Made by a program: the position numbers and the translations under genes. Source: a virus (taxonomy: Duplodnaviria; Heunggongvirae; Uroviricota; Caudoviricetes). From it: 64,000 bases of DNA. The stretch is from the IMG/VR virus record IMGVR_UViG_3300037466_002980, positions 298,811-362,810 of that record; one strand, given 5' to 3'. Under the pieces are notes generated by a model, which was given only the letters and a program-made list of their open reading frames with translations, was not told the DNA's origin and did not search any database. Each line of letters starts with the position of its first letter. Position 1 is the first letter of the stretch. Shown in pieces: positions 1-15,333 of the stretch.

Positions 1-71
1 GGCGATGGGTTTGGATCACCATTCTTCATGTGCGGTCGCAGCATGGAGAATTTTGGAGAAGGCCTGAAGGA

Positions 72-259: not shown

Positions 260-442
260 TTACCATCGTACCTTGTTTTTTCTTTTAATTCCTAAGAAAG
301 AAGAAGATGTGAACAATTCATTCATTGTTTTTCTATAATGCTTTAGGGCACGAAGTGCTATTGGCCATGGAAATCTTTTACTGAGAATTTTGATTCTACT
401 AAGAGGTGTTTCGGGAAAGACCAATTTTCTCTTTTTCTTCAT
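260..442 (-). CDS. small basic hypothetical protein
   Basis: 60-aa ORF; 4-nt overlap with the downstream minus-strand gene; lysine/arginine-rich. Confidence 0.3.
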   Translation of the reverse strand: MKKKRKLVFPETPLSRIKILSKRFPWPIALRALKHYRKTMNELFTSSSFLGIKRKNKVRW

Positions 443-648
443 ATTTTTATTTTTTCGGTTTCTTTAATTACTCTTAGATCTGGATAAGTTAATTTTAACA
501 TAAGGAGTTCTTCTTCATCCATCCATTTTGTTTGAATATATCCAAACTCAAAATCAATCCACACAAACTGAACAATCCATGACACTGGATCACTATTTTG
601 TAATTTGAAAAATTCCTCTTTAGGCAATGATATTCTATAAGATTTCAC
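439..648 (-). CDS. small protein of the terminal-motif paralog family (array B1)
   Basis: C-terminal 'DEEELLMLKLTYPDL' motif shared with the neighbouring paralogs. Confidence 0.5.
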   Translation of the reverse strand: MKSYRISLPKEEFFKLQNSDPVSWIVQFVWIDFEFGYIQTKWMDEEELLMLKLTYPDLRVIKETEKIKI

Positions 649-674
649 AAATTTATTTATAAAGAATTTTTCTT

Positions 675-785
675 ATTTTAAATTCCTAGGTCGGATTCCT
701 ATTTTAAATTCCGAATCTGACCTTCGGACCTGTGCAAGATTCCTAATCTCAGATTCCAAATTTAAATTCCAAATCTGGTCTTGAT
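675..785. repeat. imperfect direct repeats, TTTAAATTCC-N-AATCTG x3 plus GATTCC x3, in a 385-nt intergenic region
   Basis: TTTAAATTCC at 677, 704 and 761; AATCTG at 715 and 773; candidate iterons or regulatory sites. Confidence 0.5.
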
Positions 786-1033
786 TTTTATGCAGAATTT
801 TCTTATCTAAATCTCCATTTGCCTCGATTAGCTAGAATTCTATCACACGACTTTAATGCTTTTCTTGATTTCTTAAGCCTTCTCTTATATTTCAGTATGG
901 ATATTTTTTTCTTACCTTTTAGAAATATCGAATTTATTAGGAATCTTTTTTTAATTTTTCTTTTCTTCATTATTAGATATACAATCAATGTAACAATAAA
1001 TTCAAAATTAGGATTACAGAAAGTGTTGTAATA

Positions 1034-1339
1034 TTACCTTATGAATATTTCAACCATCCAGAAGAACCATGAAGAAATGAAGTATAGAATTTGATCTTTT
1101 ATTGTATAGACTCGAGCTTCAAATTTGAAACGTAATTTTAAGAAAAGAATATCTTCTTTGGTTGCCTTAATTATTAAATCATTGTTTTCTGTCTCGTAAG
1201 CTAATATTCCTAGATTTTTACATTCGTCGGTGCCTAAATATTTCACAACTGCCCAATAATCCTTTACTTCATCAAAATAAAGGATATATCTGATTGTTTT
1301 ATCAGGATTATGTTCTGAAGAAAAGAGAGGAAATGTCAT
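1034..1339 (-). CDS. small protein of the terminal-motif paralog family (array B1)
   Basis: 'TKEDILFLKLRFKFE' motif; tandem with its paralogs. Confidence 0.5.
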   Translation of the reverse strand: MTFPLFSSEHNPDKTIRYILYFDEVKDYWAVVKYLGTDECKNLGILAYETENNDLIIKATKEDILFLKLRFKFEARVYTIKDQILYFISSWFFWMVEIFIR

Positions 1340-1616
1340 TTCCCACCCGAGAAAGAATAGATGTAAATGGTTTCAGAAGATAAAAGAAATGCTCTCTGGA
1401 ACTTATTTTCTTGACTGAAATAATCTTGTGTTTTAATGAAAGTAATATAACATCTTCCTCTCTCATCTTTTTGGTTCGTATCGGAACATAAGCGACCTGA
1501 TAATTTGCAGAAAGTTCAACTAGATCTGTAGAATGATATTTTCCAATTTCCTCAAGCGATAGAGCAATTTCGCCATGATCTCGAATATCTGTTATAATTT
1601 CGTACCTGGATTTCAT
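1308..1616 (-). CDS. small protein of the terminal-motif paralog family (array B1)
   Basis: 'REEDVILLSLKHKII' motif; the N-terminus is probably shorter than the ORF track shows. Confidence 0.45.
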   Translation of the reverse strand: MKSRYEIITDIRDHGEIALSLEEIGKYHSTDLVELSANYQVAYVPIRTKKMREEDVILLSLKHKIISVKKISSREHFFYLLKPFTSILSRVGNDISSLFFRT

Positions 1617-1798
1617 TCTATAATTCCGATATGAACATCGAATTTTAATTTGATATAGATCATATCATCGTTATCCATACGCTTCGTACTCAGCGTATAA
1701 ACTTTCGGCCATTCGTCCTCTAATAGTTTCCTGACATACAAATGAAAGTAAACTGTATTATAATCTTCTGGACTGGTTACTATATAATATCTTTTCAT
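1613..1798 (-). CDS. small protein of the terminal-motif paralog family (array B1)
   Basis: C-terminal 'DNDDMIYIKLKFDVH'. Confidence 0.5.
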   Translation of the reverse strand: MKRYYIVTSPEDYNTVYFHLYVRKLLEDEWPKVYTLSTKRMDNDDMIYIKLKFDVHIGIIE

Positions 1799-1995
1799 AA
1801 ATCCAATAAAGTCAATCCTGTTTTTAATGCCAGGAAATCAAGTTCCTCCATATTCGGATCAACAACATATCCGATAACAACTCTTCTTCCATTTGGTAAT
1901 GGAAATCTTCCTCCGTATTTTCTTTCCGCAAAAAAGTAGGCAACCTCTTCAGCGAAATCACCAGGAACTTCATAAAAAATTATCTTCTCTGCCAT
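1795..1995 (-). CDS. small protein of the terminal-motif paralog family (array B1)
   Basis: C-terminal 'NMEELDFLALKTGL'; 4-nt overlap with its neighbour. Confidence 0.45.
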   Translation of the reverse strand: MAEKIIFYEVPGDFAEEVAYFFAERKYGGRFPLPNGRRVVIGYVVDPNMEELDFLALKTGLTLLDL

Positions 1996-2218
1996 AATAT
2001 GAATATCTGTTGGAATTTCGATTATATCTAAATGTGGGACAGGCCAATGATAGTTGAAGAAGATCCTCTTCAGTCAATCCGCTAATAGATACATAATATT
2101 TTATATTAGTTTCCGTTGCTTGTATAATGGTATAAGTTGACAACCGGAGTATATGAGATATGAGTAATTCCTTCTCGTGTTTCAACACCCAACAATCGAA
2201 TACTATACGTCCGCTCAT
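1970..2218 (-). CDS. small protein of the terminal-motif paralog family (array B1)
   Basis: 'TEEDLLQLSLACPTF' motif. Confidence 0.45.
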   Translation of the reverse strand: MSGRIVFDCWVLKHEKELLISHILRLSTYTIIQATETNIKYYVSISGLTEEDLLQLSLACPTFRYNRNSNRYSYYGREDNFL

Positions 2219-2457
2219 TTAAATCTATCGCTGATAATTAATTTAATTGTCTTTTGAACTTCTCCAAACTCAGCAGGAGAATGATGATAATAAAGTTTGA
2301 ATTTTAACTTCAATAAAACCAGAAGATCTTCATCTACGGTTGCTTCTATCGCCATCATTCCAGGTATGTTGGTATTTCTTTTAAGGTAATCTGTTTCCTT
2401 TATTTCCTCAATAAAAGAATCAATACTACCATATTCAACATAGAATTTATATTTCAT
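2215..2457 (-). CDS. small protein of the terminal-motif paralog family (array B1)
   Basis: 'VDEDLLVLLKLKFKL' motif; 4-nt overlap. Confidence 0.5.
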   Translation of the reverse strand: MKYKFYVEYGSIDSFIEEIKETDYLKRNTNIPGMMAIEATVDEDLLVLLKLKFKLYYHHSPAEFGEVQKTIKLIISDRFK

Positions 2458-2466
2458 AACTCTTTC

Positions 2467-2661
2467 TTAATTATCTATCTTCACAATTCGAAATCTGTAC
2501 TTAATCGAAAGAAATAATAAACAATCCTCATCTGAAGTTTGAAGATATCCCCAGGGACTATTACCAATATTTTCAATAATAGAAAATGAAAATCCATTAT
2601 TATGATCATTCATCATTTCTTCTATTGCATTCTTATCCGGAAATATAACCTTATATATCAT
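2467..2661 (-). CDS. small protein of the terminal-motif paralog family (array B1)
   Basis: 'SDEDCLLFLSIKYRF' motif. Confidence 0.5.
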   Translation of the reverse strand: MIYKVIFPDKNAIEEMMNDHNNGFSFSIIENIGNSPWGYLQTSDEDCLLFLSIKYRFRIVKIDN

Positions 2662-2879
2662 CTTCTGCCTAAAATCTTTTCCTTCTTATTTAGAATTTTA
2701 ATAGTAGGAAATTTCAACATTAAAACTAGAAGATCATCGTCTTCAATGTTAATTATATGAATTCCGGCTTCTTTGGTTACGGTTATTGAAATTAGAACAT
2801 CATAGCAACGCATTAGAGCAACATGGTGTCTGAAATCATGATAACAATTAATTGGAACCTCTATTGTTGCTTCATTCAT
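2658..2879 (-). CDS. small protein of the terminal-motif paralog family (array B1)
   Basis: 'EDDDLLVLMLKFPTI' motif. Confidence 0.5.
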   Translation of the reverse strand: MNEATIEVPINCYHDFRHHVALMRCYDVLISITVTKEAGIHIINIEDDDLLVLMLKFPTIKILNKKEKILGRR

Positions 2880-3111
2880 TTATAAGATCTTTTTTTACAA
2901 TATTAAATGATAAAGATAATAGTGTTAATTCTTCTTCGGAAATTCGCATATGAAATGTTAAGCATGAAAGCGGAGCAAGTTCTTCAATCATGGCTTGTAG
3001 GAGATCACCCGGTTCGTGTTTAACTTCTCGTTTTAATATTGAATCAATCTTAAATCTTATTTCGACTCTTGAACTCCTAGGTTCTCGAATAACAATACGC
3101 CAAATATTCAT
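2872..3111 (-). CDS. small protein of the terminal-motif paralog family (array B1)
   Basis: 'SEEELTLLSLSFNIV' motif. Confidence 0.45.
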   Translation of the reverse strand: MNIWRIVIREPRSSRVEIRFKIDSILKREVKHEPGDLLQAMIEELAPLSCLTFHMRISEEELTLLSLSFNIVKKDLINE

Positions 3112-3317
3112 CTAAATTTACCACCCAATAATATTAAATAATTCAATTCTTCATTATCCAAATATAAATTAAACCAACAGAATGGATAATAGACATTATA
3201 AAATTTTCTACCTTTTTCCTTTTTATTATCCATAAGGCTACCAATAAATTCACAGGCATGAACAGATGCAAGCTCATTTGGGAACACTATTTGATGATTT
3301 TGTACGACAGGGTTCAT
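3108..3317 (-). CDS. small protein of the terminal-motif paralog family (array B1)
   Basis: C-terminal 'DNEELNYLILLGGKF'. Confidence 0.45.
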   Translation of the reverse strand: MNPVVQNHQIVFPNELASVHACEFIGSLMDNKKEKGRKFYNVYYPFCWFNLYLDNEELNYLILLGGKFR

Positions 3318-3380
3318 AGAATAAAAAATGATTACACAGAAAAATCTGTATAAAATTTATTTAAAACTTTCTCATGTGTT

Positions 3381-3674
3381 CTAATTGCTTGGGCCGCGAT
3401 AGTGCAACATATTGTCCGGTAAACTAACTCTTATCATAGTTTCTGTTTCTACCACTTGTCTAAATGAATATTTCAATGTTAGAAGAGTAACAAATTCTTT
3501 ATCTGCCTTAAGTGAAATTATGGTATTATGATAAACATTTCTATACCATGTATAGCAAAGTCCTGTCAATATTCGTTTATTATGATAATTTTGAATTTCT
3601 TGAACGAGGTTGTTGAAAAAATCAGGATGTTCCTGTTCACTTTCGAATTCTATTAGAAAATAAGACATTTCCAT
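3381..3674 (-). CDS. small protein of the terminal-motif paralog family (array B1)
   Basis: 'KADKEFVTLLTLKYSF' motif. Confidence 0.45.
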   Translation of the reverse strand: MEMSYFLIEFESEQEHPDFFNNLVQEIQNYHNKRILTGLCYTWYRNVYHNTIISLKADKEFVTLLTLKYSFRQVVETETMIRVSLPDNMLHYRGPSN

Positions 3675-3858
3675 TTTATTAATACCTCAAGATCAAATGA
3701 GGTTTGGTCATTTGCTTTTCTTCTTATCTGATTCAGAAACAGGGGGTTTTGGAAATGTTGCTGAAACAAATCTTGCTTGTTCTTGCATCCATTTCGGCCA
3801 AGTTTTAATTGCCTTTCTAGCACGACTGAAATGTCTTAAGAAGGATTTACTCATTTCT

Positions 3859-4236
3859 TCATTCTCCCCATTTATATGGACCACCATCAAGAGGTATATT
3901 ATTCTGTCTCCAAAAACGCAATGATCCCCGAATTCCTTCTCCTGCTGTGATATGTGGCGCTAGTGTTAATTTAGAAACACACCTAGTTCCATATCCATTT
4001 CCTCTAAGTGATTTACGACAGAAGGCCATTACCATATTACGGTTAACCAATGCTGCGGCAACTGCAACACCATTGAGATGTCCTATTGCAACTTGATAGT
4101 CTTTATGGGGATTTATTAGAAACATTTCAAATACCCCCTTCATTGTCCAACCATTAACATATAATCGATGGGTTAGACAAATCATTGCACCTTCATCTAA
4201 GTTATTTCCTTGATATAACTTAACTTCAAATCCCAT
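3859..4236 (-). CDS. GNAT-family N-acetyltransferase
   Basis: acetyl-CoA-binding motif A 'RKSLRGNGYGTRCV' (Q/R-x-x-G-x-G/A) in a 125-aa ORF. Confidence 0.55.
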   Translation of the reverse strand: MGFEVKLYQGNNLDEGAMICLTHRLYVNGWTMKGVFEMFLINPHKDYQVAIGHLNGVAVAAALVNRNMVMAFCRKSLRGNGYGTRCVSKLTLAPHITAGEGIRGSLRFWRQNNIPLDGGPYKWGE

Positions 4237-4425
4237 AATTATCCTTTTAGAAGATCAAAAACAAATTGGCCTACTAACAATGTCTATGCCTACTGCCTTA
4301 ATTTTGTCGTTATAATCCGCTTAAATTCGCTATTAATTCGCAGGTAAGATCTAGGCCAATTACTGCAAGTCTAACAGATTTCAAGAAATAACGTCAATAG
4401 AAAGAGGTTTTGATTAGTTCGGAAA

Positions 4426-4460
4426 TAGAAAAAGGTCGCACAAAGGCGACCTTTTATCTT
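4426..4460 (-). terminator. bidirectional rho-independent terminator
   Basis: stem GGTCGC/GCGACC (4434-4451) with an A-run on one side and a T-run on the other; just downstream of the GC-rich gene at 4503..4892. Confidence 0.6.
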
Positions 4461-4502
4461 TGAATTGAAAAGGTTCGGCTAGAACCTTCTCAAATGGCCT
4501 GG

Positions 4503-4892
4503 TTAGGCCGACACCGTCTCGGCAGCCTTCTCGGTGCCTTCCGCCGGTGCAGCGGCTTGTTCCGGCTGAGCTTCAGCTTCCTTGGCCTTCGCGGGGCGAC
4601 CACGCTTGCCAGTGCTGGCGGGCTTTTCCTTCTTCGGGTCACGGCCCAGGCCGACTTCGGGGTTGGCCGTTTCCGCTTCCTTCTTCGCGGCGTTGTACAT
4701 CGTTGCCGCGGAGGCAACGCTCACGCCCAGGTCCTTCTGGATTTGCGTCAGAACTGCGGCGCGGAAGGCCTTGTTCGACGTGTACGCGCCGGTGGCACGT
4801 TGGTCCAGGTGCGACTTGAAGATGAGGGTCGCGCGCGCCTTTTTCGAAGGCGCCTTCGGTGCTTGCACCGTGGTGTTTTCAGCTTGTTCCAT
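4503..4892 (-). CDS. Ala/Lys-rich hypothetical protein with an AT-hook-like tail ('GKRGRPAKAKE'); the gene is a GC-rich island
   Basis: about 65% GC against about 30% in the flanks; AGGAG Shine-Dalgarno 9 nt upstream; the plus-strand ORFs overlapping it are antisense artefacts. Confidence 0.5.
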   Translation of the reverse strand: MEQAENTTVQAPKAPSKKARATLIFKSHLDQRATGAYTSNKAFRAAVLTQIQKDLGVSVASAATMYNAAKKEAETANPEVGLGRDPKKEKPASTGKRGRPAKAKEAEAQPEQAAAPAEGTEKAAETVSA

Positions 4893-4983
4893 AAATTAAC
4901 TCCTGTGTGTGTTGAACAAATTCGGTATTAGGATCATTTCCCGTTCACCGCAATATCAAGTCTATAGACATTTAACTTATTTG

Positions 4984-5226
4984 TCAATCAACCGGTATAA
5001 CCAACTTAAAGTCAGGGTCATTATTTTGATGCACCCAACGCGATGCCTTGCTATCTTGCGTTTGCCCAATCGGTGCTATAAAAAGCCAAGGTCCTTTCTT
5101 ATCGGGACTAAAGAGAACACGTTCTGTTTCGGCAAACACTGTCCATTCATTGCCGTGCTCACGGACACGATTTTTGCCCTTTTGGGTGATACCGTGTAAT
5201 TTAATTATCTTTCCAAGTAATGACAT
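4984..5226 (-). CDS. hypothetical protein
   Basis: 80-aa ORF with minus-strand colinearity. Confidence 0.4.
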   Translation of the reverse strand: MSLLGKIIKLHGITQKGKNRVREHGNEWTVFAETERVLFSPDKKGPWLFIAPIGQTQDSKASRWVHQNNDPDFKLVIPVD

Positions 5227-5266
5227 TACTTTAACCTTGTTGGAATAATATACATTTTAATGTAAG

Positions 5267-5464
5267 TTATAATTTTTCTGCAAATCCTAATTCATCTTCA
5301 TCAAAGACTCCCCATTCATTGGTAGGCCATTCTACCGCATAAGAAATCTTACCACTGAACATATCACTGCACGGCGGAGGAATAATTTTTGTGATAATAG
5401 CGATCTCACCATCGGCAATCACATGATCGCCTACTGAATATTTTGTTATAGGTTTTGCATTCAT
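5267..5464 (-). CDS. hypothetical protein
   Basis: 65-aa ORF. Confidence 0.4.
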   Translation of the reverse strand: MNAKPITKYSVGDHVIADGEIAIITKIIPPPCSDMFSGKISYAVEWPTNEWGVFDEDELGFAEKL

Positions 5465-5468
5465 TTTC

Positions 5469-5777
5469 TTACACTAATTCTGCATTCGATCTCAATTCAG
5501 TCCAATAGACTTCACCCTCGAGACCATCTTCATTCTTTACTCGACAACAATTGCAAATTCCTTTAATTCTACGAGGTTTTTTCACAATTGTCAAAATTTC
5601 ACCGGGAACCGCACCGAATGCAATATCGACACCAATATACCGTTCGACATCCCATGCCCTAATTGCTGCCAGGTCGGGAAGATTAGGACTGGCGAAAATA
5701 ATTCCAGCAGTTTTTGACTTCAATGAGACAATTCGAACCTTCGTTCCTGGAATCATGTCTTCCTTTTTGAGCACCAT
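5469..5777 (-). CDS. hypothetical protein
   Basis: 102-aa ORF; contains a 'CNCC' cysteine pair. Confidence 0.45.
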   Translation of the reverse strand: MVLKKEDMIPGTKVRIVSLKSKTAGIIFASPNLPDLAAIRAWDVERYIGVDIAFGAVPGEILTIVKKPRRIKGICNCCRVKNEDGLEGEVYWTELRSNAELV

Positions 5778-6031
5778 TACATTTCTCCTTTCAGTCGTGC
5801 TGCAAGGAAATCATCGCCCGAAATACAAGGAGTTTTATATCCTCCTTGAATTGCTTGTCGATTGAGATCTTGTGCGCAGGATAGACACACCCAATTTTTA
5901 TCCGATTTGTTGTACCAGGTTGCCCTTCTAGGAGTCTTCGCAAAGAAACAACGAATGCTTGTGCATTGTCCGTTTTCGGTACCACCGCTCGCAAAGAAGG
6001 AACGTTCGGAAGAATCGAGAAGATTTCGCAT
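5777..6031 (-). CDS. Cys-rich hypothetical protein
   Basis: 84-aa ORF; 1-nt overlap with the downstream gene; multiple Cys residues. Confidence 0.4.
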   Translation of the reverse strand: MRNLLDSSERSFFASGGTENGQCTSIRCFFAKTPRRATWYNKSDKNWVCLSCAQDLNRQAIQGGYKTPCISGDDFLAARLKGEM

Positions 6032-6397
6032 TTAAATCACCAGACTGTCAGGAATATCAACTTCATTGCCGAGTTTTGAGGCAACGAAACAACGCATTGC
6101 AGCGATGAGTGGTGTTAAACCTTCAAATTCTTTATCAATACCGGGCCATTTGGCATAGTAGGTTCGGGAATTTGGATCACACAAATCGCCTTCCCATACC
6201 CAAACAATTCCAGTTCGTTCGATAATCGGTCCGCCTTGGGTCCAGTCAATGGAAGGTTGGTACCATTCCCAGCCACCATGCGGCCCTCGAATTTCGTAGC
6301 GCGGCCCATCTGCCGTTATTGCGCATTTGAATCCTTCGCACTTCGCCACCGCCCAATTTAGAGAATTACCGACAAGATCATTAACCTTAATTTTCAT
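6032..6397 (-). CDS. phage-associated Trp-rich protein that resembles DUF2591
   Basis: 'MKIKVNDLVGNSLNWAVAKCEG...' N-terminus resembles the DUF2591 phage family; the family name is recalled, not searched. Confidence 0.45.
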   Translation of the reverse strand: MKIKVNDLVGNSLNWAVAKCEGFKCAITADGPRYEIRGPHGGWEWYQPSIDWTQGGPIIERTGIVWVWEGDLCDPNSRTYYAKWPGIDKEFEGLTPLIAAMRCFVASKLGNEVDIPDSLVI

Positions 6398-6872
6398 TTT
6401 CCGGTACCTTATAAATCTTAATTCGTTTTCCGTTTATAGTGATAGTCTTCTTTGTACCTTGTGAAGGATCGAAAGATAGTATTGCACAAGGAGAACATGG
6501 ATAACCATGATTTTCTCTTGAATGTTTTATAAGTGTTTCTGCAATATATTTGACTGTATTTCCGGAAAGAACAAAATCATCTACAATAAGAAACTTTTTC
6601 AGCAGTAAATCTGCATTGCATTCAATCCTGGCACCGTGAGAGTTTTCATTATCTTTTCTCACATAGATCATTGGAATATTATTCATGTATCCAAGAATAA
6701 ATCCAACGGCACATCCAGAACTTCCACAGAAAGCAATTGCTTCAAATTTGTATTTTTCCTTCAATTCTTGGAATAAATCGTCGGCTTTATTCATGTACCT
6801 TCGAAAGGCACTAGGACTCATGCTTGACCAACCATATCCAACGAAATTGAGTTTCTTATATTTTTTGCCCAT
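6387..6872 (-). CDS. phosphoribosyltransferase-domain protein
   Basis: PRPP-binding motif 'KKFLIVDDFVLSGNTVKY'. Confidence 0.55.
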   Translation of the reverse strand: MGKKYKKLNFVGYGWSSMSPSAFRRYMNKADDLFQELKEKYKFEAIAFCGSSGCAVGFILGYMNNIPMIYVRKDNENSHGARIECNADLLLKKFLIVDDFVLSGNTVKYIAETLIKHSRENHGYPCSPCAILSFDPSQGTKKTITINGKRIKIYKVPENEN

Positions 6873-6873
6873 G

Positions 6874-7089
6874 TTAGATAATGGTTCGAATTTTTTCGGT
6901 TCTCTTCTGTTGATTTAGAACTCGATTTCTGTTCTGTGTATTGTGGGAATTTTCAATAGTTAAATTTTGAAACTTTCCCATAGCTTCTTTTCCGGAAGGA
7001 ACAAAAGCACCCATAAGAAGATCAGTAAGGGCAGATAATGGAAATGCCTGCTTCTTCTGTTGGAATTTACGAAGGGATCTAATCTTCAT
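6874..7089 (-). CDS. hypothetical protein
   Basis: 71-aa ORF. Confidence 0.3.
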   Translation of the reverse strand: MKIRSLRKFQQKKQAFPLSALTDLLMGAFVPSGKEAMGKFQNLTIENSHNTQNRNRVLNQQKRTEKIRTII

Positions 7090-7325
7090 TAGGACATCTC
7101 TTCTTCATCTTCTAATTCTGCCAATGCGGCTTCCACCTTCTCGTTCATCTCTGCCTTTACCTGCCTTTGCAAGGTAATGGTAGCGACAGATCTGGGGCGA
7201 ACTTCCCACAACGGGCAAGAACGAACCGAACAATTCTCGATTTGTTGAAGGTACGTACCCGGTGCGAACTGATCATAGGTGCATTGTTTGCACTTCGCTT
7301 GAATTGCCTTTTTTAGAGAAGCCAT
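7089..7325 (-). CDS. Cys-rich, zinc-ribbon-like hypothetical protein
   Basis: CxxC...CxxxxC pattern followed by an acidic tail. Confidence 0.4.
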   Translation of the reverse strand: MASLKKAIQAKCKQCTYDQFAPGTYLQQIENCSVRSCPLWEVRPRSVATITLQRQVKAEMNEKVEAALAELEDEEEMS

Positions 7326-7392
7326 TACAATCTCCTGATGTATTAGTCTATTTTAATGACTTCCTAAAAAATAGTCAACAGGTTTAATTAGA

Positions 7393-7767
7393 TCACATCT
7401 TCCTGCGTAATTTTTCAGCAAGCACTAATTGAAGGATTTCGTTTGCCAATTCGTCCTCTTCCATCACCAATGCCTGTTGGGCAAGTTCTCGAAGATCTTC
7501 CAACATTTTCTGTACACCATGACGAACAACTCTAATGCCGCCAAGTGATTTCAACAACACGATACGTTTTTCAACCTCAAAATTCACATCAGGATAGGTC
7601 GAAAGATAATGGGTATCAATCTTCATTCGTTGAACACCTGGACGTTCAGTTGCATCCTTGGCATCTTTTAAACCAAGTGCCGTGAGTTCCCTAAGTGTTT
7701 TGATTGCGGAAACACGGTTTGAGATTTTGTTGATATCTATTACTTCGAATTCGATAAATTCATCCAT
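7393..7767 (-). CDS. protein carrying a domain like the C-terminal domain of ribosomal protein bL12 (L7/L12)
   Basis: 'EFEVIDINKISNRVSAIKTLRELTALGLKDAKDATE' aligns with the bL12 C-terminal domain '[36 protein letters not shown]'; the bL12 N-terminal dimerisation domain is absent. Confidence 0.5.
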   Translation of the reverse strand: MDEFIEFEVIDINKISNRVSAIKTLRELTALGLKDAKDATERPGVQRMKIDTHYLSTYPDVNFEVEKRIVLLKSLGGIRVVRHGVQKMLEDLRELAQQALVMEEDELANEILQLVLAEKLRRKM

Positions 7768-7832
7768 TATTTTCTTCCATAGATTGACAGACTTTTTATT
7801 ATATTAAATATCATTATTTAAGTCTACAGGAT

Positions 7833-7858
7833 AGAGAAAAGCCCGCAGTCGCGGGCTT
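7833..7858 (-). terminator. rho-independent terminator
   Basis: stem AAGCCCGC/GCGGGCTT with loop AGTC, followed on the minus strand by TTTTCTC. Confidence 0.55.
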
Positions 7859-8351
7859 CAATGGCTTACATTGCGGAAGGTTGACAAGCATCCTACCGTC
7901 TCCGTCTCCATGTGTCAATGTGTTAACTTGGAGACTAACTTCAATTAAAACTAACTCACAATAATATGTGCATTACTCCAGACCAATTCTGGATGTAAGT
8001 GGCCGGGTTTCTTAGGCCCTAATTACTCAAATATTAAAAATTAAAAGCCCCTTGGATAATATCTCCGTTTTGCGCTTTTAACGCTCCAGTTGATACAAAT
8101 CAACCACAGACACTAATGAGTTCCTTAACCATCTCAGATTAAAGATATAGTCTGACATTGATACCCATTCACAATACGGTAAAAAGAAGGAGGATGTCTC
8201 GAATGTGCCCCAAACTCGTCCATGCCCACACATTCGGTCCTACAACTTCTTAGGTTTCGGGTTATTCTATATTTTACGCTTCGGCAATACAAAATACAGC
8301 CCGGCAACCTACCGTTTCGACAATTTTAAGGGATGTCTCTTCAGTTGTGCC

Positions 8352-8576
8352 CTACATCGTCTGTCTATACCAAAACTCCGGAATTTCTTGCTCTCCTTCT
8401 GCTGTTTCTTTTATTATATATCCAAATTCGTGCCACCATCCAGAATCAAGGAGAATGTCCCTTTCCCATCGTCTAAAATGAGTTGGATGAACTCCTTTTA
8501 ACGAAAGCAAAAATTCGTATTCCTTTAATTCTTTATAGTGTTCAAAACTCTCTATTTCGAGATATCTTAGTGTCAT
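8352..8576 (-). CDS. hypothetical protein
   Basis: 74-aa ORF. Confidence 0.4.
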   Translation of the reverse strand: MTLRYLEIESFEHYKELKEYEFLLSLKGVHPTHFRRWERDILLDSGWWHEFGYIIKETAEGEQEIPEFWYRQTM

Positions 8577-8665
8577 ATAAAAAAGTCCGCACCAGTTTTC
8601 TCACAACCTCTTCGAACATTTCGCGAGGACAACTGGTATTGGTGGTGCTCCTAGCGGACGAAACC

Positions 8666-8923
8666 TTACAATAAGCTCAAATACAACGAAGTCTGGGGAT
8701 CGTAATTTTCCGTGAAGATGTAAATCTTCGGAGATGCCGGTCTTCCAGATTTCAGAATGCGAAGAACTCTACCTTCCATTGTCCAGTTGTCCCTGCCCTT
8801 GCCGACATTCTTGTTCAGCCAGTTGACAATCTTGTAGAAATGTTCCGTGTTACGGATACTGACACGGAAGGAGAACTTAGCCTGTTCTTCCTTCAAATTC
8901 GGGAGTGTTTGTTTGAGCGTCAT
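8666..8923 (-). CDS. hypothetical protein
   Basis: 85-aa ORF. Confidence 0.4.
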   Translation of the reverse strand: MTLKQTLPNLKEEQAKFSFRVSIRNTEHFYKIVNWLNKNVGKGRDNWTMEGRVLRILKSGRPASPKIYIFTENYDPQTSLYLSLL

Positions 8924-9080
8924 ATTAATAATATAATTTAATTCCTATTTGCCGTCAACCTTCAAACCAAAATTATATCAACCCCCATCCAGGTCTTGAA
9001 CCTGGCAGGTTCCGGCTGTTAGAACATAATTAGGGCCCTAAAAGCACATCAATTCGGAACCAGCATCCCCATTTGGGAGT

Positions 9081-9395
9081 CTAACCTTTATTCAGTCTTT
9101 CATTTGCTTGAAAAACTGCAAATTGATTTTCAGCTAATCTTGATGCAATGTATCTGTCTTTGTTTTCACCAAGATACTTCCAATTGTCAACAACCTCACC
9201 ATGCCTGGGCTTGGTGAAATAGCCATCCAAAAGATCATCAGTCATGCCATTGAAGAATCCTTCCAAACCATTTGTATCTTTCATACCGGCTTGAAAGAAA
9301 TATTTCTGTGTACCATCGGAAATTCTGGTAATGATGCTATGCGCACCAGAATTAGCAATATGAACTAGAAAGATATATTTACTTGAAAGTTTCAT
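9081..9395 (-). CDS. hypothetical protein
   Basis: 104-aa ORF. Confidence 0.4.
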   Translation of the reverse strand: MKLSSKYIFLVHIANSGAHSIITRISDGTQKYFFQAGMKDTNGLEGFFNGMTDDLLDGYFTKPRHGEVVDNWKYLGENKDRYIASRLAENQFAVFQANERLNKG

Positions 9396-9753
9396 TCTTT
9401 AGTTTAAGAAAAATCATTGATTTTTTTAATTCTGATTGAAGAAATAAGGCTGTGGCACGTGAGCACATATTTCTTTCTTTGAATTTATTTGATACTTCTT
9501 CCTCATCACGACAAAATGATATCGCAGATATCCATCTTTCACCGTTGCCAAATGGAGCATTGCAAATCCAGACAGTAATTCCGTTTATCCGGGCGGTGTA
9601 TTTGTCATGTAATTTTTCAATCTTTCCGTCCTTTAAGGAGTTCCAGAGAAAATCATCCCAACTAGAATCAAATGATGAACCGATTCGGATCCAGACACCC
9701 GGAGTCCAAAGCACCTTCAATCTGAAATAAAGCCTCAACCAATCAATTTTCAT
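9379..9753 (-). CDS. hypothetical protein
   Basis: 124-aa ORF; C-terminal 'SMIFLKLKNETFK' resembles the family motif. Confidence 0.4.
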   Translation of the reverse strand: MKIDWLRLYFRLKVLWTPGVWIRIGSSFDSSWDDFLWNSLKDGKIEKLHDKYTARINGITVWICNAPFGNGERWISAISFCRDEEEVSNKFKERNMCSRATALFLQSELKKSMIFLKLKNETFK

Positions 9754-9847
9754 ATTAGAGACTGTTCCAATCAGACTTGAACTGATTTTTCTCTTGGGGC
9801 CATATAATTCAAGACCTTGAATTAGTTCCCGGAACAGAAAATTTAAA

Positions 9848-9894
9848 AGTTCCTTGAAGGACTCGAACCTTCGTCGCAGGTTATATGAGAACCA
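9848..9894 (-). other. tRNA-like 3' half: anticodon arm with a Met-type CAT anticodon loop, variable loop, T arm and 3' acceptor strand
   Basis: minus strand reads TGGTT-CTCATAT-AACCT GCGAC GAAGG-TTCGAGT-CCTTC AAGGAAC T, canonical 5+7+5 / 5 / 5+7+5 / 7 geometry with no D-arm; a 6-of-7 match to the acceptor 5' strand (GTTCCTG) lies about 50 nt upstream. Confidence 0.35.
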
Positions 9895-10025
9895 CGATGC
9901 TACCGAGAAAAGTGCCGGATGCAGCCAACACAGTCATGCAGGAACTTACAGTACAGCACGAAAGAACCGTATTGTAAATTCCTATGCTGTAAGTTTATGT
10001 AATTCCTACAGCTTTGGTCAACTGG

Positions 10026-10355
10026 TTACTTGATTCGAAAAACCAGACTTGTTTTTGTCGAAACAATTTCAATATTATTTTCTTGAACAAATTTATTCAG
10101 ATCATTGAATTCACTGACGTTCTGGAGAAGATCTGCTTTCTGCGGATGACCGACCTTGATTGCTATAAATTCTTTCCTGCAATTCAGTTTCACGATGCTG
10201 CGAAAATATGCAGCGTGAGCTAGGCTTTTCAGCTGTTGGGCTTTCAAATGTTGTTCGTCTGTGAAGTTATTCCAATACAGCTTATTCTGCCTATCAATAT
10301 CGGCAAAAACGACTGCCGCCGGTTGGGAAGATTCGTCGATGTCCAAATGCTTCAT
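10026..10355 (-). CDS. hypothetical protein
   Basis: 109-aa ORF. Confidence 0.4.
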   Translation of the reverse strand: MKHLDIDESSQPAAVVFADIDRQNKLYWNNFTDEQHLKAQQLKSLAHAAYFRSIVKLNCRKEFIAIKVGHPQKADLLQNVSEFNDLNKFVQENNIEIVSTKTSLVFRIK

Positions 10356-10367
10356 TGTTGTCTCCTC

Positions 10368-10628
10368 TTAATTCACCCTATTCGCTGGATCCACATAGAT
10401 CTCACGAATATGTTCTGCAACAATTTCGTTATCTGTATGAATTTCAAAATTAGAAGTTCCACTAGCAGTGGATGTGAAAGATGCTCTATATAATTCATCT
10501 TTCCATTTTGTTAGATCATCAAGCAGTTTTCCTGTTGGAATTATATCTTTTACGGAAAAATAATCAATCTTAAACCCGAAACGTGTCTTTCGCGCTTTGA
10601 TTTCTCTAAATCCAGAGATATAATTCAT
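10368..10628 (-). CDS. hypothetical protein
   Basis: 86-aa ORF. Confidence 0.4.
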   Translation of the reverse strand: MNYISGFREIKARKTRFGFKIDYFSVKDIIPTGKLLDDLTKWKDELYRASFTSTASGTSNFEIHTDNEIVAEHIREIYVDPANRVN

Positions 10629-10837
10629 TAATAACTCCGTGTCAAAATAACACCTTCTTTTTTAGCATGTAGAAGGAATTCTATCCATTCCCATCCGTGT
10701 CTTTTACAAAATTCTAACCTTGCAAATGAAGAGCGAAATTCTCCCGCAAAATTAGTCTTATTGTATAGATCAAGAAGAACATAAAAATCAAGCCTTTTGA
10801 GCTTATTAAATGTATCCTCTTCTGTTTTGGTCTCCAT
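10628..10837 (-). CDS. divergent member of the 'MTEEDTF' family
   Basis: 'METKTEEDTFNKLKRLDF...KRHGWEWIEF'. Confidence 0.5.
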   Translation of the reverse strand: METKTEEDTFNKLKRLDFYVLLDLYNKTNFAGEFRSSFARLEFCKRHGWEWIEFLLHAKKEGVILTRSY

Positions 10838-11010
10838 TACCGATATTCCCTGCGCATTTTCTTCTTTGCGCGAATCATATCTTTTTCTTTGAATTTCTTT
10901 CGATCCTTTGGATGCACATACTCATCCTGATCGTAATCATCTTCATAATCGAAGTTATCTTCTTGATAATCTTCTTGATAATCTTCTTGATTAGGATTAT
11001 TCTGCTTCAT
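10837..11010 (-). CDS. acidic low-complexity mini-protein with QEDY repeats
   Basis: 57-aa ORF below the track cutoff; contains a 12-nt DNA tandem repeat (ATCTTCTTGATA)x3; TAATG junction with the next gene. Confidence 0.35.
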   Translation of the reverse strand: MKQNNPNQEDYQEDYQEDNFDYEDDYDQDEYVHPKDRKKFKEKDMIRAKKKMRREYR

Positions 11011-11076
11011 AGCCCACGATGCTGTTTTGCTGCCCTTATTTTATGTAATATCAAATAAAGTGTCAACAGGAGGTTG

Positions 11077-11484
11077 TTATTTCACTTCTTCAAATTCAAT
11101 ATTGTTCACATCGGAAAGTTTTGCCCAGAAACGCACTGGTCGTTTCGGAATTTTTTGTGTATAGGTAAAATCTTCTCTATCTCGGCCAGAAGCGAATTTG
11201 GTAGCAGTTTTCTGTATAACTCTTGGAGCAGTAGTCATACCCTTCCAAAGGAAGGTAACTGAATCAAACTCATCTTGACCTTTACGAATGTAAATACGGT
11301 CGATTTTTAATTCGGCCTGTGCTGGAATTACAACCTTGATTGCTGTATCACGGTCGTCCCATGGATCGCGTTTATCACCAACAATTTCCATTAATGTAGA
11401 ATTTCTGTCTTCAGCATATAGATTAAATTCCCAATCTTGGGTAAGACGAATAATATCGCCGATAGAAGGAATATAGAGTTTCAT
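11077..11484 (-). CDS. hypothetical protein
   Basis: 135-aa ORF. Confidence 0.45.
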   Translation of the reverse strand: MKLYIPSIGDIIRLTQDWEFNLYAEDRNSTLMEIVGDKRDPWDDRDTAIKVVIPAQAELKIDRIYIRKGQDEFDSVTFLWKGMTTAPRVIQKTATKFASGRDREDFTYTQKIPKRPVRFWAKLSDVNNIEFEEVK

Positions 11485-11852
11485 GATTTCAGACTTTCAG
11501 TTTCCAAATTAAATTCTGCCCATGCTTCGAAAAATTCCTCAGCAGTCCAATTTAATTCTGGAAGAACATCTTTAAGAGGTTTGCGTGGTAAACCAATATC
11601 GAGGATTTCAGAAAATGATTTCCGTTTTAATTTTCTTATTACATCATCTTCGGTTGTATATTTAAATTTTTTCGAAACCTTTTCAAAATTTTGATCGGTT
11701 GTATAATACAGAATAGAACCTATATCACCCTGGATTGAGGATTCATAAATACCGGCCTGCATTGTACCGTTGTTAAGAACGTGAATTACAATTGCCCTAG
11801 CAGATCCTTTAAAAAGGGCAATTCTATCACCGATTTTATATTTTGATTCCAT
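11481..11852 (-). CDS. hypothetical protein with an 'MTEEDTF'-family-like module in its C-terminal half
   Basis: internal 'TTEDDVIRKLKRKSFSEILD...NWTAEEF'; ATGA overlap with its neighbour. Confidence 0.45.
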   Translation of the reverse strand: MESKYKIGDRIALFKGSARAIVIHVLNNGTMQAGIYESSIQGDIGSILYYTTDQNFEKVSKKFKYTTEDDVIRKLKRKSFSEILDIGLPRKPLKDVLPELNWTAEEFFEAWAEFNLETESLKS

Positions 11853-12069
11853 TTTGGTTCTTCATCCTCTGGAAATCTTGTTCCCTTTGTGTATTAATAG
11901 TAATCACCCATTCATTCCAAGTCCAGCCATGTTGTTTGAAAAATTCTTCACGGTCTGTATTATAACTATCCTGAATGAATGACTTGTCAGCTATCCAACC
12001 ACTAAAAAGACGTGTAATATCATCCAATGGAATTTGTTTTAATTTCTTAAATGTATCTTCTTCAGTCAT
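11836..12069 (-). CDS. MTEEDTF-family small protein
   Basis: 'MTEEDTFKKLKQIP...HGWTWNEW'. Confidence 0.55.
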   Translation of the reverse strand: MTEEDTFKKLKQIPLDDITRLFSGWIADKSFIQDSYNTDREEFFKQHGWTWNEWVITINTQREQDFQRMKNQNGIKI

Positions 12070-12326
12070 TTAAAGAATTCTTTCATAAATTCATCAAAGT
12101 CCCATCCGTGTGGATCTAGAAATTCACGACATATTTCTTTTTGTTTTCCACTGTTCCACCATCTATTACATTCTCTTCGAATCCAGAATTCTTGAAAAGG
12201 CTCAACAATATCTTCAAACGGAGTTCTTTTCAAACGTTCAAATGTCTTCTCTGAATTGTCGTTCACGAGCTGTTCGGTAATATTCTGACCAGGTCCATCC
12301 ATGTTTAGCAAGTAATGAATTAACAT
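12066..12326 (-). CDS. MTEEDTF-family small protein; the true start is probably downstream at GTG 12266
   Basis: 'SEKTFERLKRTPFED...HGWDFDEF'. Confidence 0.5.
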   Translation of the reverse strand: MLIHYLLNMDGPGQNITEQLVNDNSEKTFERLKRTPFEDIVEPFQEFWIRRECNRWWNSGKQKEICREFLDPHGWDFDEFMKEFFK

Positions 12327-12492
12327 TATCCGAAGTTAATGGTGTATTTCTAAGTATTTCTTGAAATTCATCAAATGGTGTTTGTCTTAATTTTCTTAAT
12401 AATTCTTCTTCATTAGACACTTTTATTCTCTTCTCTCCATTGTCTAAAATATTCATTCTTTTCTTTTTCATATTCGACAGAATTCCATCCAT
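12238..12492 (-). CDS. MTEEDTF-family small protein; the probable start is GTG at 12420, tiled as GTGTCTAA on the previous gene's stop
   Basis: 'SNEEELLRKLRQTPFDEF...HGWTWSEY'. Confidence 0.5.
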   Translation of the reverse strand: MDGILSNMKKKRMNILDNGEKRIKVSNEEELLRKLRQTPFDEFQEILRNTPLTSDNVNSLLAKHGWTWSEYYRTARERQFREDI

Positions 12493-12631
12493 GCACCCTT
12501 AGAAGATTCAGATTCGAATCGAAACGTTCTTGATTAGATCCATGCCTCTTCATATTATTTTGATTAATAATTGCAATTATGTCCTCAATAGGACTTCTTC
12601 TCAATCGATTGAATGTATCATCTTCAGTCAT
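12413..12631 (-). CDS. MTEEDTF-family small protein
   Basis: internal start 'MTEDDTFNRLRRSPIEDI...HGWNSVEY'; ATGA junction. Confidence 0.55.
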   Translation of the reverse strand: MTEDDTFNRLRRSPIEDIIAIINQNNMKRHGSNQERFDSNLNLLRVHGWNSVEYEKEKNEYFRQWREENKSV

Positions 12632-12825
12632 TTTATAAGATAAGTTCTTTTCCAATGCATAACCCTAGCAGTTTCATATTCGTCGGGATTCCATCCATTT
12701 GCCCTAAGAAGTCTTATATTTCTTTCAAAAGAAACTCCCGCTTCTATGTTTGATTTCTGAATTATCTCTATCATTTCTCCAATAGGAGTTCTTCTCAATC
12801 GATTGAATGTATCATCTTCAGTCAT
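12628..12825 (-). CDS. MTEEDTF-family small protein
   Basis: 'MTEDDTFNRLRRTPIGEM...NGWNPDEY'. Confidence 0.55.
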   Translation of the reverse strand: MTEDDTFNRLRRTPIGEMIEIIQKSNIEAGVSFERNIRLLRANGWNPDEYETARVMHWKRTYLIK

Positions 12826-13012
12826 TTTGTTGCCTATATTCTACGTATTCGTAGTAGGTCCACTTATATTGTTGAAAGAAGGTATCCACCTTTTTGTCCC
12901 AGTCTTTGCTATTAAGAGAAAAACCAACACTTAGTAACCAAGCATGATACTTGGTTTTCATTTCAATGAATGGAATTCTATTCAAAACTTTGAAGGTATC
13001 GTCCTCAGTCAT
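12818..13012 (-). CDS. MTEEDTF-family small protein
   Basis: 'MTEDDTFKVLNRIPFIEM...YKWTYYEY'; 8-nt overlap. Confidence 0.55.
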   Translation of the reverse strand: MTEDDTFKVLNRIPFIEMKTKYHAWLLSVGFSLNSKDWDKKVDTFFQQYKWTYYEYVEYRQQND

Positions 13013-13015
13013 ATC

Positions 13016-13201
13016 TTATAATCGATAAAGATAATCGTGCCAGGTCCATCCATGTTCTTCAAAAAACGAATTTCTTTTTTTGTAAAAGTCGGACGTCGGA
13101 GTAACAAAGTCAATATTCTCTGAAAACCATTTAAGGTAAAGAATTTTCATTTCTTGAAAAGAAACTTTTTTCAATCTTAGAAATGTATCTTCTTCAGTCA
13201 T
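13016..13201 (-). CDS. MTEEDTF-family small protein
   Basis: 'MTEEDTFLRLKKVSFQEM...HGWTWHDY'. Confidence 0.55.
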   Translation of the reverse strand: MTEEDTFLRLKKVSFQEMKILYLKWFSENIDFVTPTSDFYKKRNSFFEEHGWTWHDYLYRL

Positions 13202-13400
13202 AGAGTGTAGATCCAGCCTATCTTCTCTACCATCAATTTTGCCCTCTTGAGGCAGATGGTTTGAATATAGAGATACCAGGCTGTTGGAATAGGCATTGCT
13301 TGAACCAAGATGGCGATGGTAGTATAGGATTTGAATGCTTGAATATATATCTTCGCAAAGATATATTGAAGGATTGGTTTCACACGAATAGTGATTTGCA

Positions 13401-13625
13401 TTATTTCCCCATGAAACGTTGAACCAACATTACGGCCTGCTGGGTAGATATGTTCTGAACAGTCATACCTTTGGCACGATATTCTGAAAGACGTTTGTTG
13501 GTTTCGATTATACCATCCACTAGATGAATATTCTGACCATCGTAGATCATCCAATGAGAATTGGATGCACCGGGTAATTCCGGACGCAACATCGAAAGAA
13601 GAACAGTTTTCATTTCAATACTCAA
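13401..13625 (-). CDS. hypothetical protein
   Basis: 74-aa ORF; preferred over the overlapping 13198..13554 ORF, which has odd composition. Confidence 0.35.
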   Translation of the reverse strand: MSIEMKTVLLSMLRPELPGASNSHWMIYDGQNIHLVDGIIETNKRLSEYRAKGMTVQNISTQQAVMLVQRFMGK

Positions 13626-13821
13626 CGTGACCGTTAATCTCTACATAGACGATGGCTTCGCCATATTCGGCTGACAGATGTTCTTTGATGAATTTAATTA
13701 CATTCTTTTCGTTGTATTCGCTGATATAAGGAACTATAGCAATTCCATCTTTTTCGGAAAGGGTCTTGAAGGTTGTCCTAATCTTCCCGTCATCGACACA
13801 ACGTCTAAACCAATCAGGCAT
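13615..13821 (-). CDS. hypothetical protein
   Basis: 68-aa ORF. Confidence 0.4.
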   Translation of the reverse strand: MPDWFRRCVDDGKIRTTFKTLSEKDGIAIVPYISEYNEKNVIKFIKEHLSAEYGEAIVYVEINGHVEY

Positions 13822-13902
13822 AGAATTTCCTATACATCAGCAGGTAGAAATGTGACTTAAAAACACATTATGGGATGCACTTATATAATGATGCATCATA
13901 CC

Positions 13903-14202
13903 TTACCAATATTCGGCATCCTTCTTATCTTTTTCAATTCTCTTTTCGCATTCTTGTTCGATTTGTTTGCGAATTTCGATCATGTTATGATAATCTGCTA
14001 AACACATTGGATCGAAGTGTGGATCTTTCATACTCTCCTCCATGCGTTTGGTTTCTTGTTTATGATTGTCAAGAAGGAGATGAATCAGAAAACTGTCTGC
14101 ACAGTTTTTCATAATTCTTTCACATTGTTCAGTCTGATCTTCGTAAGTCATAATAAATTGTATTCCAGATCGGTCAATTCTGGTCCACTTGCTGTGCTCC
14201 AA
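13903..14202 (-). CDS. hypothetical protein
   Basis: 99-aa ORF. Confidence 0.4.
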   Translation of the reverse strand: MEHSKWTRIDRSGIQFIMTYEDQTEQCERIMKNCADSFLIHLLLDNHKQETKRMEESMKDPHFDPMCLADYHNMIEIRKQIEQECEKRIEKDKKDAEYW

Positions 14203-14359
14203 GCTTCAAATGGAGATAACGATTATGTTAGTGAGTATGCCAAAAACCTTACACCAAATACAAAATAGATCGGTAGAAATATATATTCATTTTATGAATA
14301 TATACTAAGGATATTAACAGTCACCATTTGGTATATTCCATTAATATCATACCAATTTC

Positions 14360-14451
14360 TGGTGCCCCGAGCCGGACTCGAACCGGCACGCCGCGATCAG
14401 GCAAGCGAGGGATTTTAAGTCCCTTGTGTCTACCAATTTCACCACCGGGGC
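14360..14451 (-). tRNA. tRNA-Leu (anticodon TAA), type II with a long variable arm; CCA is encoded
   Basis: reverse complement reads GCCCCGG TG GTGA AATTGGTAGA CACA AGGGA-CTTAAAA-TCCCT CGCTTGCCTGATCGCGGCGTG CCGG-TTCGAGT-CCGG CTCGGGGC A CCA; cloverleaf folded by hand. Confidence 0.8.
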
Positions 14452-14469
14452 AAATTTTTAACAGTCTTT

Positions 14470-14498
14470 ATTTTAGACTTATTCCTAAAAGCCGTCAA
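14470..14498 (-). promoter_or_regulatory. sigma70-like promoter for tRNA-Leu: TTGACG, 17-nt spacer, TAAAAT
   Basis: -35 element at 14493-14498 and -10 element at 14470-14475 on the minus strand, about 19 nt upstream of the tRNA 5' end. Confidence 0.45.
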
Positions 14499-14502
14499 AT
14501 AC

Positions 14503-14700
14503 TCATTGTCGGTGTTTTTCCAATTCCTTCTTTTCTTTTTTCCATTCTTGTTTAGCCTGTTCCTTAGTTTCACCGATGCCGGTTACAAGGTAATTTGGAT
14601 TTTCGTTTGATTGGCAATACCAATTATTGTTCGCATAGAACATGCAGAATTCTTCTTTCATGATTATTCCTAAATATGCTTTCTTACTATTGAGAAGCAT
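14503..14700 (-). CDS. hypothetical protein
   Basis: 65-aa ORF; 'WYCQSNENPNY'. Confidence 0.35.
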   Translation of the reverse strand: MLLNSKKAYLGIIMKEEFCMFYANNNWYCQSNENPNYLVTGIGETKEQAKQEWKKEKKELEKHRQ

Positions 14701-14715
14701 ATTTACCGGAATAAT

Positions 14716-15333
14716 TTATTTTCCTAATGTTATTTCCATCTCTTGAATAAAAATCTTATCGAGTTGTTTTTGATTTTCATCTTCCCATAGAAATTCATGA
14801 TGCATACCTCGATGAGGTTTTCCACTCAATTTAGCTATTAATTTTCCTTCATCATAGAGCTTATTTTCATCAATGAATGGCCAATCTAGATCGAAAAATC
14901 GATAATCCCAACTATAACAATGGTTTGATACCTTAGAATAATATTTACTGCCGGAAGAATATATTAATCCTAAGATTCTTTCCCAGGGTCCACTATAAGA
15001 ACCATATCCACCTGTGCCTGTGTATGTCATGGTAGGACCAAATGGACTACTTCCAAATTGGTTAGGTTTATCTTCATATCGAATCCAAACTCTTCCTGAC
15101 CAACCGGGTCCATCATGCGATTTATAATAATGATGGAGTTTTTCCATGCGACATATTTGCCATTGAAATCCAACTACCTTATAATTCTTATATTTCTTTC
15201 TAGGACGATCATATCCGGTGTTTTCTTGATTATTGATAACCGCAATTATGCATTGAGCCAATTCGTCTAGGCTCTCTGGTTCTTTTCCAAAGACATCTAA
15301 AATTCTTTGCTTTGCAGGAGAAATAATATCCAT
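14716..15333 (-). CDS. Gly/Tyr/Ser-rich hypothetical protein
   Basis: 205-aa ORF; 'TYTGTGGYGSYSGPW'. Confidence 0.45.
   Translation of the reverse strand: MDIISPAKQRILDVFGKEPESLDELAQCIIAVINNQENTGYDRPRKKYKNYKVVGFQWQICRMEKLHHYYKSHDGPGWSGRVWIRYEDKPNQFGSSPFGPTMTYTGTGGYGSYSGPWERILGLIYSSGSKYYSKVSNHCYSWDYRFFDLDWPFIDENKLYDEGKLIAKLSGKPHRGMHHEFLWEDENQKQLDKIFIQEMEITLGK

Follow-up and report, generated by a model that had tools for sequence, protein, structure and literature searches.

Phages have been known since 2019 to encode proteins built around a domain of ribosomal protein bL12. Mizuno et al. described such proteins either as the bL12 domain alone, in 98-126 amino acids (aa), or embedded in larger proteins, and found them in genomes under 80 kb only (PMC6375957). 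The residues that contact the translation factors and uL11 are conserved in these phage proteins, and mass spectrometry detected one of them in purified 70S ribosomes; affinity purification of ribosomes through a tagged phage bL12 protein did not succeed (PMC6375957). On function, the papers that we found on phage bL12-domain proteins contain speculation and that one mass-spectrometry detection. Al-Shayeb et al. (2020) place rpL7/L12 among the genes of huge phages (PMC7162821), and several phage entries in BFVD are titled 'bL12 C-terminal domain-containing protein'. A first-pass annotation of the locus described here had presented a viral protein that keeps only the helix core of the bL12 C-terminal domain (CTD) as apparently unprecedented; since bL12-domain-only phage proteins were described in 2019 and rpL7/L12 in huge phages in 2020, this claim of novelty fails.

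Many phage proteins have only one part of the domain, the pair of helices α4-α5. When the E. coli CTD was used as a tblastn query, the few deposited phages found to carry the pair were RSB3 and RSJ5, Enterobacter phages SABI and SonariX, and Streptomyces phages Anedea and Riptide. Proteins with the α4-α5 pair only, recognizable by a ...NK[IV]... motif, also occur at IMG/VR loci L021-L040 (for example L025 5001-5108 and L036 5001-5135; L023 is RSJ5), where the pair is fused to 90-290 aa of unrelated sequence and the motif sometimes lies at the extreme C-terminus. Among phages, the helix pair has the appearance of a portable module.

The protein analysed here comes from an uncultured phage genome of about 360 kb, of which we examined a 64,000-nucleotide stretch (the window). 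Like the proteins of Ralstonia phages RSB3 and RSJ5 and roseophages DFL12phi1 and DSS3P2 reported by Mizuno et al., it is a viral protein with the Pfam domain PF00542 and no bL12 N-terminal domain; some of those proteins are also of ~100-126 aa, keep the factor-contact residues and have been proposed to act on host translation. The differences are nevertheless clear: RSJ5 resembles bL12 only in β1 and the helix pair, none of the Mizuno et al. proteins has the invariant hairpin (...ELANEILQLVLAEKLRR) that ends the present protein, and their genomes are smaller than 80 kb, whereas members of the present family often lie on contigs of 140-390 kb. In this last respect the family is closer to the case of Al-Shayeb et al., which concerns huge (>200 kb) uncultured phages with an L7/L12-annotated gene, read as aiding elongation during infection (PMC7162821). 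With cellular bL12 (RplL) it shares the CTD fold and the factor-binding helix pair, the family consensus aligning with a 25-residue segment of the E. coli protein, but it lacks the N-terminal domain and hinge, has an additional C-terminal hairpin and carries a loop between β2 and the third helix that is ~10 residues longer. We found no description of the combination of CTD and invariant hairpin, or of its restriction to huge phages. As the most likely function we put forward, tentatively, that the protein is a docking module for translational GTPases, either tethered or oligomeric.

The gene and its family

The open reading frame lies exactly where the first-pass annotation had placed it, with an ATG start and 124 codons before the stop (Table 1), and its reality is supported by full-length homologues (40-55% identity, ~180 clusters) whose N-termini align across the whole family. 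An identical protein is present on a 362,810-bp JGI contig. The window has typical phage content (NinX, RtcB, HNH, a macro domain, tRNAs and long series of small ORFs that share one direction) and a GC content of ~35%, which is patchy when measured in 2-kb bins (0.28 to 0.46); the islands of higher GC (4001-6000, 42001-44000, 48001-50000 and 54001-56000) may contain acquired genes.

Table 1 Features of the bL12-like gene and its surroundings in the window
Feature	Position	Strand	Basis or remark
Gene of the 124-aa bL12-like protein	7393..7767	-	ORF list; ATG start; stop codon 7393-7395
Complete bL12 CTD fold, aa 1-82 (predicted)	7522..7767	-	β-α-α-β-α-β order found
Counterpart of bL12 helices α4-α5, aa 17-41, NRVSAIKTLRELTALGLKDAKDATE	7645..7719	-	Pfam match aa 16-42; conservation
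Family-specific α-hairpin, aa 83-124 (helix A 85/86-101, helix B 105-123)	7396..7521	-	
Near-invariant last helix, aa 103-122, EEDELANEILQLVLAEKLRR	7402..7461	-	Family consensus GEDELANEILQLVLAEKLRR
GGAAG, Shine-Dalgarno-like element	7774-7778	-	
Sigma-70-like promoter match, TAGACT-17-TATAAT	7798..7826	-	Scan, 10/12 matches
Terminator-like GC-rich hairpin, AAGCCCGC-GACU-GCGGGCUU, then U-rich UUCUCUAU	7839..7858	-	Upstream of the gene
78-aa Cys-rich protein (CxxC...C...C)	7089-7325	-	Adjoins family members in 11 loci
161-aa phosphoribosyltransferase-like protein	6387-6872	-	Kept beside the family in L001 and L014
80-aa protein	4984-5226	-	Recurs near family members, 10 loci
129-aa Ala/Lys/Pro-rich protein, weak AT-hook match	4503-4892	-	Recurs, 15 loci

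When 5.8 billion protein clusters were searched, relatives turned up in about 180 clusters at 90% identity; at 50% identity, 83 representatives were found, and all of these sequences are metagenomic. The best 120 of the 180 relatives have lengths of 105-137 aa and align with 85-100% of the query, at 41-55% identity; PF00542 is present in every one. In IMG/VR a member is encoded by 18-20 viral contigs, the largest of 385 kb. With the protein as tblastn query, none of 50,697 deposited phage genomes gave a match, and neither DNA nor protein searches brought up a close relative among deposited phages. Among 185,579 bacterial and archaeal species-representative genomes, the best 80 loci included no full-length member; they are genuine bL12 genes that match the query from aa 2 to ~50 only. 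In these searches, the family occurs on uncultured viral or phage-like contigs alone, and a large share of these contigs are very long. The cellular CTDs nearest the phage domain among those best 80 loci are mostly proteobacterial, many from Burkholderiales, which gives a weak hint as to the host.

A complete bL12 C-terminal domain with a conserved factor-binding face

The 124-aa protein is a homologue of the bL12 CTD, and the similarity goes beyond chance. PF00542 (Ribosomal_L12 C-terminal domain) matches aa 16-42 with an E-value of 5.3e-6 and a score of 27.1 bits, slightly above the gathering score of 25.9, and is matched by all 42 aligned relatives, at best with E 1.7e-10. All PDB chains were also searched with phmmer, which returned bL12 entries, led by 2zjq_5 (E 2.4e-5, aa 2-47), plus one match at E 8, and a profile built from the 42-member family extended the match to T. 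maritima bL12 over aa 3-66 (E 1.4e-10). AlphaFold2 gave one and the same model from 42 and from 120 sequences (pLDDT 87 and 85, pTM 0.63), with predicted strands at aa 4-9, 44-49 and 78-82 and predicted helices at aa 18-29, 33-41, 61-74, 85/86-101 and 105-123. In the structural comparison that had been proposed as a check, Foldseek ranked 1ctf first, and its bL12 matches reach a probability of 0.97 at 26% identity.

Since these results recover the full CTD fold, the original assignment to bL12 is upheld and the similarity is not that of a generic helix-turn motif. They also enlarge it: the likeness had been thought to be confined to residues 1-40 and the rest of the protein unrelated, whereas the predicted domain spans aa 1-82, so that aa 43-82 belong to the CTD fold and only aa 83-124 are indeed unrelated to bL12. 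The reported absence of the N-terminal dimerisation and L10-binding domain and of the hinge was borne out, with no match to Ribosomal_L12_N in any of the 42 family members and a negative hhalign comparison; the protein begins at β1 of the CTD, without the flexible Ala/Pro-rich hinge. Because the N-terminal domain and hinge are missing and the score against the NCBIfam L12 equivalog (TIGR00855) is 23.6 bits, far under its cut-off of 84.4, the protein is, as judged from its sequence, not a bL12 (RplL) orthologue.

The most informative part of the domain is the surface formed by helices α4 and α5. In E. coli bL12, the residues that contact the G' domain of EF-G are V66-V68, K70, L80 and E82 (PMC5887453), and in a 182-member alignment of the family the corresponding residues are kept almost throughout: V/I66 in 178 members, V/A68 in 158, I69 in 172, K70 in 175, R73 in all 182, L80 in 181 and E/D82 in 176 (E. 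coli numbering). The window protein has V19, (S20), A21, K23, L33 and D35 at the EF-G-contact positions. The mean frequency of the top residue in the helix pair (aa 17-41) is 0.79, and the α4-α5 face of the family CTD is, to judge from this alignment, under purifying selection. Given the conservation of the EF-G-contact residues in the 182 members, it is reasonable to infer that the domain binds translational GTPases.

A surface of this kind might also have been retained for a different ligand, with the fold re-used outside translation, for example in a ClpS-like adaptor or a binder of phage proteins. ClpS shares its general fold class with the bL12-like CTD and ClpS structures do appear among the Foldseek matches; moreover, in the most distant members of the family the bL12 α5 motif erodes while the ...AEKLR... 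helix of the tail stays, and the genomic context has no link to translation. However, the ClpS matches are far weaker than those to bL12 (probability 0.13-0.54 at ~10% identity), and ClpS Pfam matches neither the protein (E<=10) nor anything in the family scan. Above all, the conserved residues coincide exactly with the EF-G contacts of bL12, which disfavours a role outside translation and leaves re-use the most improbable of the explanations that we considered.

A near-invariant hairpin found only in this architecture

The segment downstream of the CTD is predicted to fold into an α-hairpin, and its last helix (aa 103-122) is the most conserved segment of the entire protein, with a mean top-residue frequency of 0.93 and an entropy of 0.48 bits over the 182 members; outside this helix and aa 17-41, the corresponding frequencies of the segments are 0.34-0.59. 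It is the protein that is constrained, rather than the DNA or RNA, since the synonymous sites are saturated: across 10 distinct DNA versions, 18 of the 19 codons of the last helix are represented by two or more synonymous codons, with changes that include Leu CTN/TTR and Arg CGN/AGR switches. A constraint at the nucleic acid level was further rejected because overlap with the downstream gene is limited to a few bases at most and because Rfam finds only two tRNAs in the window.

To all appearances, the hairpin is also exclusive to this arrangement of CTD plus hairpin. A profile of the hairpin alone, searched against 1.84 billion representative proteins, returned 83 proteins, namely the family itself, its fragments, one 237-aa N-terminally extended member and three longer proteins with weak scores; the single one of these three that we read is a tandem-repeat protein without relation to the family. 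On the strength of this exhaustive profile search, a promiscuous module shared with other proteins or with those of the host was rejected. The 42-aa tail gave only a single fragment in a word-index search, which was uninformative. At loci L019/L020 and L021 of the wider set, the CTD is accompanied by a divergent hairpin (ELAxxILxVL).

One explanation for such a hairpin is that the phage protein replaces bL12 directly, the hairpin dimerising and wrapping helix α8 of uL10 to yield stalk arms without a hinge. Both anchors would be α-hairpins of similar size (for the architecture of bL12, see PMC5887453), and one phage bL12-domain protein, unrelated to the present one, was detected in 70S ribosomes by mass spectrometry (PMC6375957). 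The sequence comparisons nevertheless speak against it. In hhalign, the hairpin matched bL12 N-terminal domains with a probability of 0.5% in one comparison and 0.25% for 77 bacterial N-terminal domains taken from the scanned loci, in keeping with the lack of any Ribosomal_L12_N match and with an equivalog score well under the cut-off. The comparison with 72 uL10 C-terminal regions was likewise negative (P 0.5), and mimicry of uL10 helix α8 by the hairpin itself was rejected, the best local alignment (GEDELANEILQLVLA versus sreeLlxxllgxxxx, P 0.5) not being significant. A circular permutation of bL12, with the hairpin as the displaced N-terminal domain, is unsupported by the same Ribosomal_L12_N and hhalign results. 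In addition, uL10 α8 is variable among bacteria and would be a poor fit for an invariant phage helix. Without detectable likeness to the bL12 N-terminal domain or to uL10, nothing in the hairpin indicates the base of the stalk specifically, and we regard direct replacement as very unlikely.

In a helical-wheel projection, helix A is amphipathic with a single hydrophobic face, whereas the hydrophobic residues L116, L120 and A117 of helix B lie outside the side available for packing against helix A. Because more than one side of helix B is hydrophobic, a second interface is suggested. The relative orientation of the CTD and the hairpin is uncertain in the model (pTM 0.63), and the extra hydrophobic surface could thus be buried intramolecularly.

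These properties bear on the idea that the protein is a free CTD, which the first-pass annotation had proposed and which does not hold, as the hairpin is always present and more constrained than the bL12 part. In the corresponding model, the protein would act off the ribosome as a soluble decoy that occupies the surfaces by which EF-G, EF-Tu, IF2 or RF3 dock on bL12, so that host translation is reduced or redirected or a GTPase is protected against host defence, and the hairpin would merely dimerise for avidity. The conserved factor-binding face, the absence of the N-terminal domain, of the hinge and of any uL10-binding signature, and the position of the gene in an array of small co-directional ORFs, typical of host-takeover regions, would all suit a decoy. 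Single contacts between the bL12 CTD and the factors are, however, weak and short-lived, and cells contain a great deal of EF-Tu, making stoichiometric titration by a small phage protein demanding, and a plain dimerisation helix has no need to be nearly invariant on all faces in proteins of 40-55% overall identity. The weakness of the contacts and the invariance of the hairpin thus weaken the free-decoy model, which we consider unlikely. A constraint stronger on the hairpin than on the CTD argues instead for tethering or oligomerisation rather than for simple titration.

Expression signals and genomic context

The gene had been described as having its own TATAAT and lying just downstream of a terminator. 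Sequences resembling both elements are present (Table 1). The terminator-like hairpin folds with a dG of -17.7 kcal/mol (z -2.87) and is not among the listings of the terminator scan. Promoter-like matches in positions 1-20000, an AT-rich region, number 92 compared with 75.9 +/- 8.1 in shuffled sequences, only ~2 sd above; because such matches are barely enriched, an independent promoter for the bL12-like gene is plausible only and the evidence for it weak. In the ~480 bases upstream of the hairpin (7870-8350), the coding strand offers no convincing ORF, only overlapping candidates of 51 and 57 aa, and Rfam finds no match there.

Several neighbours of the gene recur with it. The three small downstream genes at 7089-7325, 4984-5226 and 4503-4892 are conserved at 42-67% identity across 10-15 related phage loci, but their products belong to no family in Pfam, PHROG or PADLOC, so that these conserved neighbours carry no informative assignment from which a function could be derived. 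The product of 6387-6872 is weakly similar to PRTase-CE, the PADLOC models PRTase_III-A and ShosT, and the 'phosphoribosyl transferase' family of PHROG. The bL12-like protein itself has no PADLOC match, and its identification as a component of a defence system was set aside. No translation-related gene was seen in the gene neighbourhoods examined.

Elsewhere in the window, all on the minus strand, we noted a GNAT acetyltransferase (16643-17329; Acetyltransf_3, RimJ/RimL-type, E 1.8e-14) whose sole NCBIfam match is to RimL, the enzyme that acetylates bL12 at serine; it scores 21 bits, where the cut-off is 184. This match may be a coincidence, and the N-terminus modified by RimL is missing from the bL12-like protein. 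A macro-domain protein (50284-50826) has a DarG-antitoxin-like match (E 1.6e-15, below cut-off) and could act against ADP-ribosylation by a host defence toxin. An RtcB RNA ligase (58571-59785), which shares 58% identity with its counterparts in the Burkholderia jumbo phages BcepSaruman and BcepSauron, and genes for tRNA-Leu(TAA) at 14360-14451 and tRNA-Arg(TCT) at 21439-21515 together look like a kit for tRNA repair and supply. The window further encodes a DUF2201 metallopeptidase with a VWA-like domain and two AAA-type ATPases (33092-34288, 42019-43230 and 47738-48838), the AAA gene at 42019-43230 and the DUF2201 gene being non-adjacent, as well as a phage D-alanyl-D-alanine carboxypeptidase (24175-24993; Peptidase_S11, E 2.3e-36).

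A candidate docking module for translational GTPases

In the docking-module reading, the protein would be composed of two functional modules. The first (aa 1-82) would most likely dock EF-G, EF-Tu, IF2 and RF3 in the manner of cellular bL12. The second (aa 83-124) would substitute for the missing N-terminal domain and hinge, the hairpin serving to anchor and/or oligomerise the protein, so that a single factor-binding domain or several of them would sit on a conserved partner; the most plausible partners are the host ribosome and a translation-associated protein encoded by the phage. In the infected cell, the phage would in this way either supply further GTPase-recruiting arms of its own or rival the stalk of the host. 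Several observations count against this proposal: the hairpin is unlike both the bL12 N-terminal domain and uL10, the CTD could not reach as bL12 does without a flexible hinge, the tagged protein of Mizuno et al. failed in the purification of ribosomes (PMC6375957), and the neighbouring genes are not translation-related.

A more specific arrangement would have the hairpin plant the bL12 domain away from the normal uL10 spine, at another ribosomal location, on host bL12 or uL10 by mimicry, or on a phage machine; we judge it distinctly unlikely. The partner of the last helix would tell stalk remodelling from decoy use in such phages. Compared with the phage bL12-domain proteins known so far, the family offers a cleaner case, in that the factor-binding face is intact, the usual anchor has been swapped for an extraordinarily constrained helix, and the arrangement occurs in many very large phages. 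Even if the function proved ordinary, the automatic 'ribosomal protein L7/L12' labels on these genes should become 'bL12 C-terminal-domain protein'. Were the hairpin indeed to plant the domain away from the uL10 spine, huge phages would build a 'stalk arm' of their own, biasing which ribosomes or which step of translation receive the factors, and the 20-residue helix, together with the K23/R26/L33 face, would provide a mutable handle on how these phages redirect translation.
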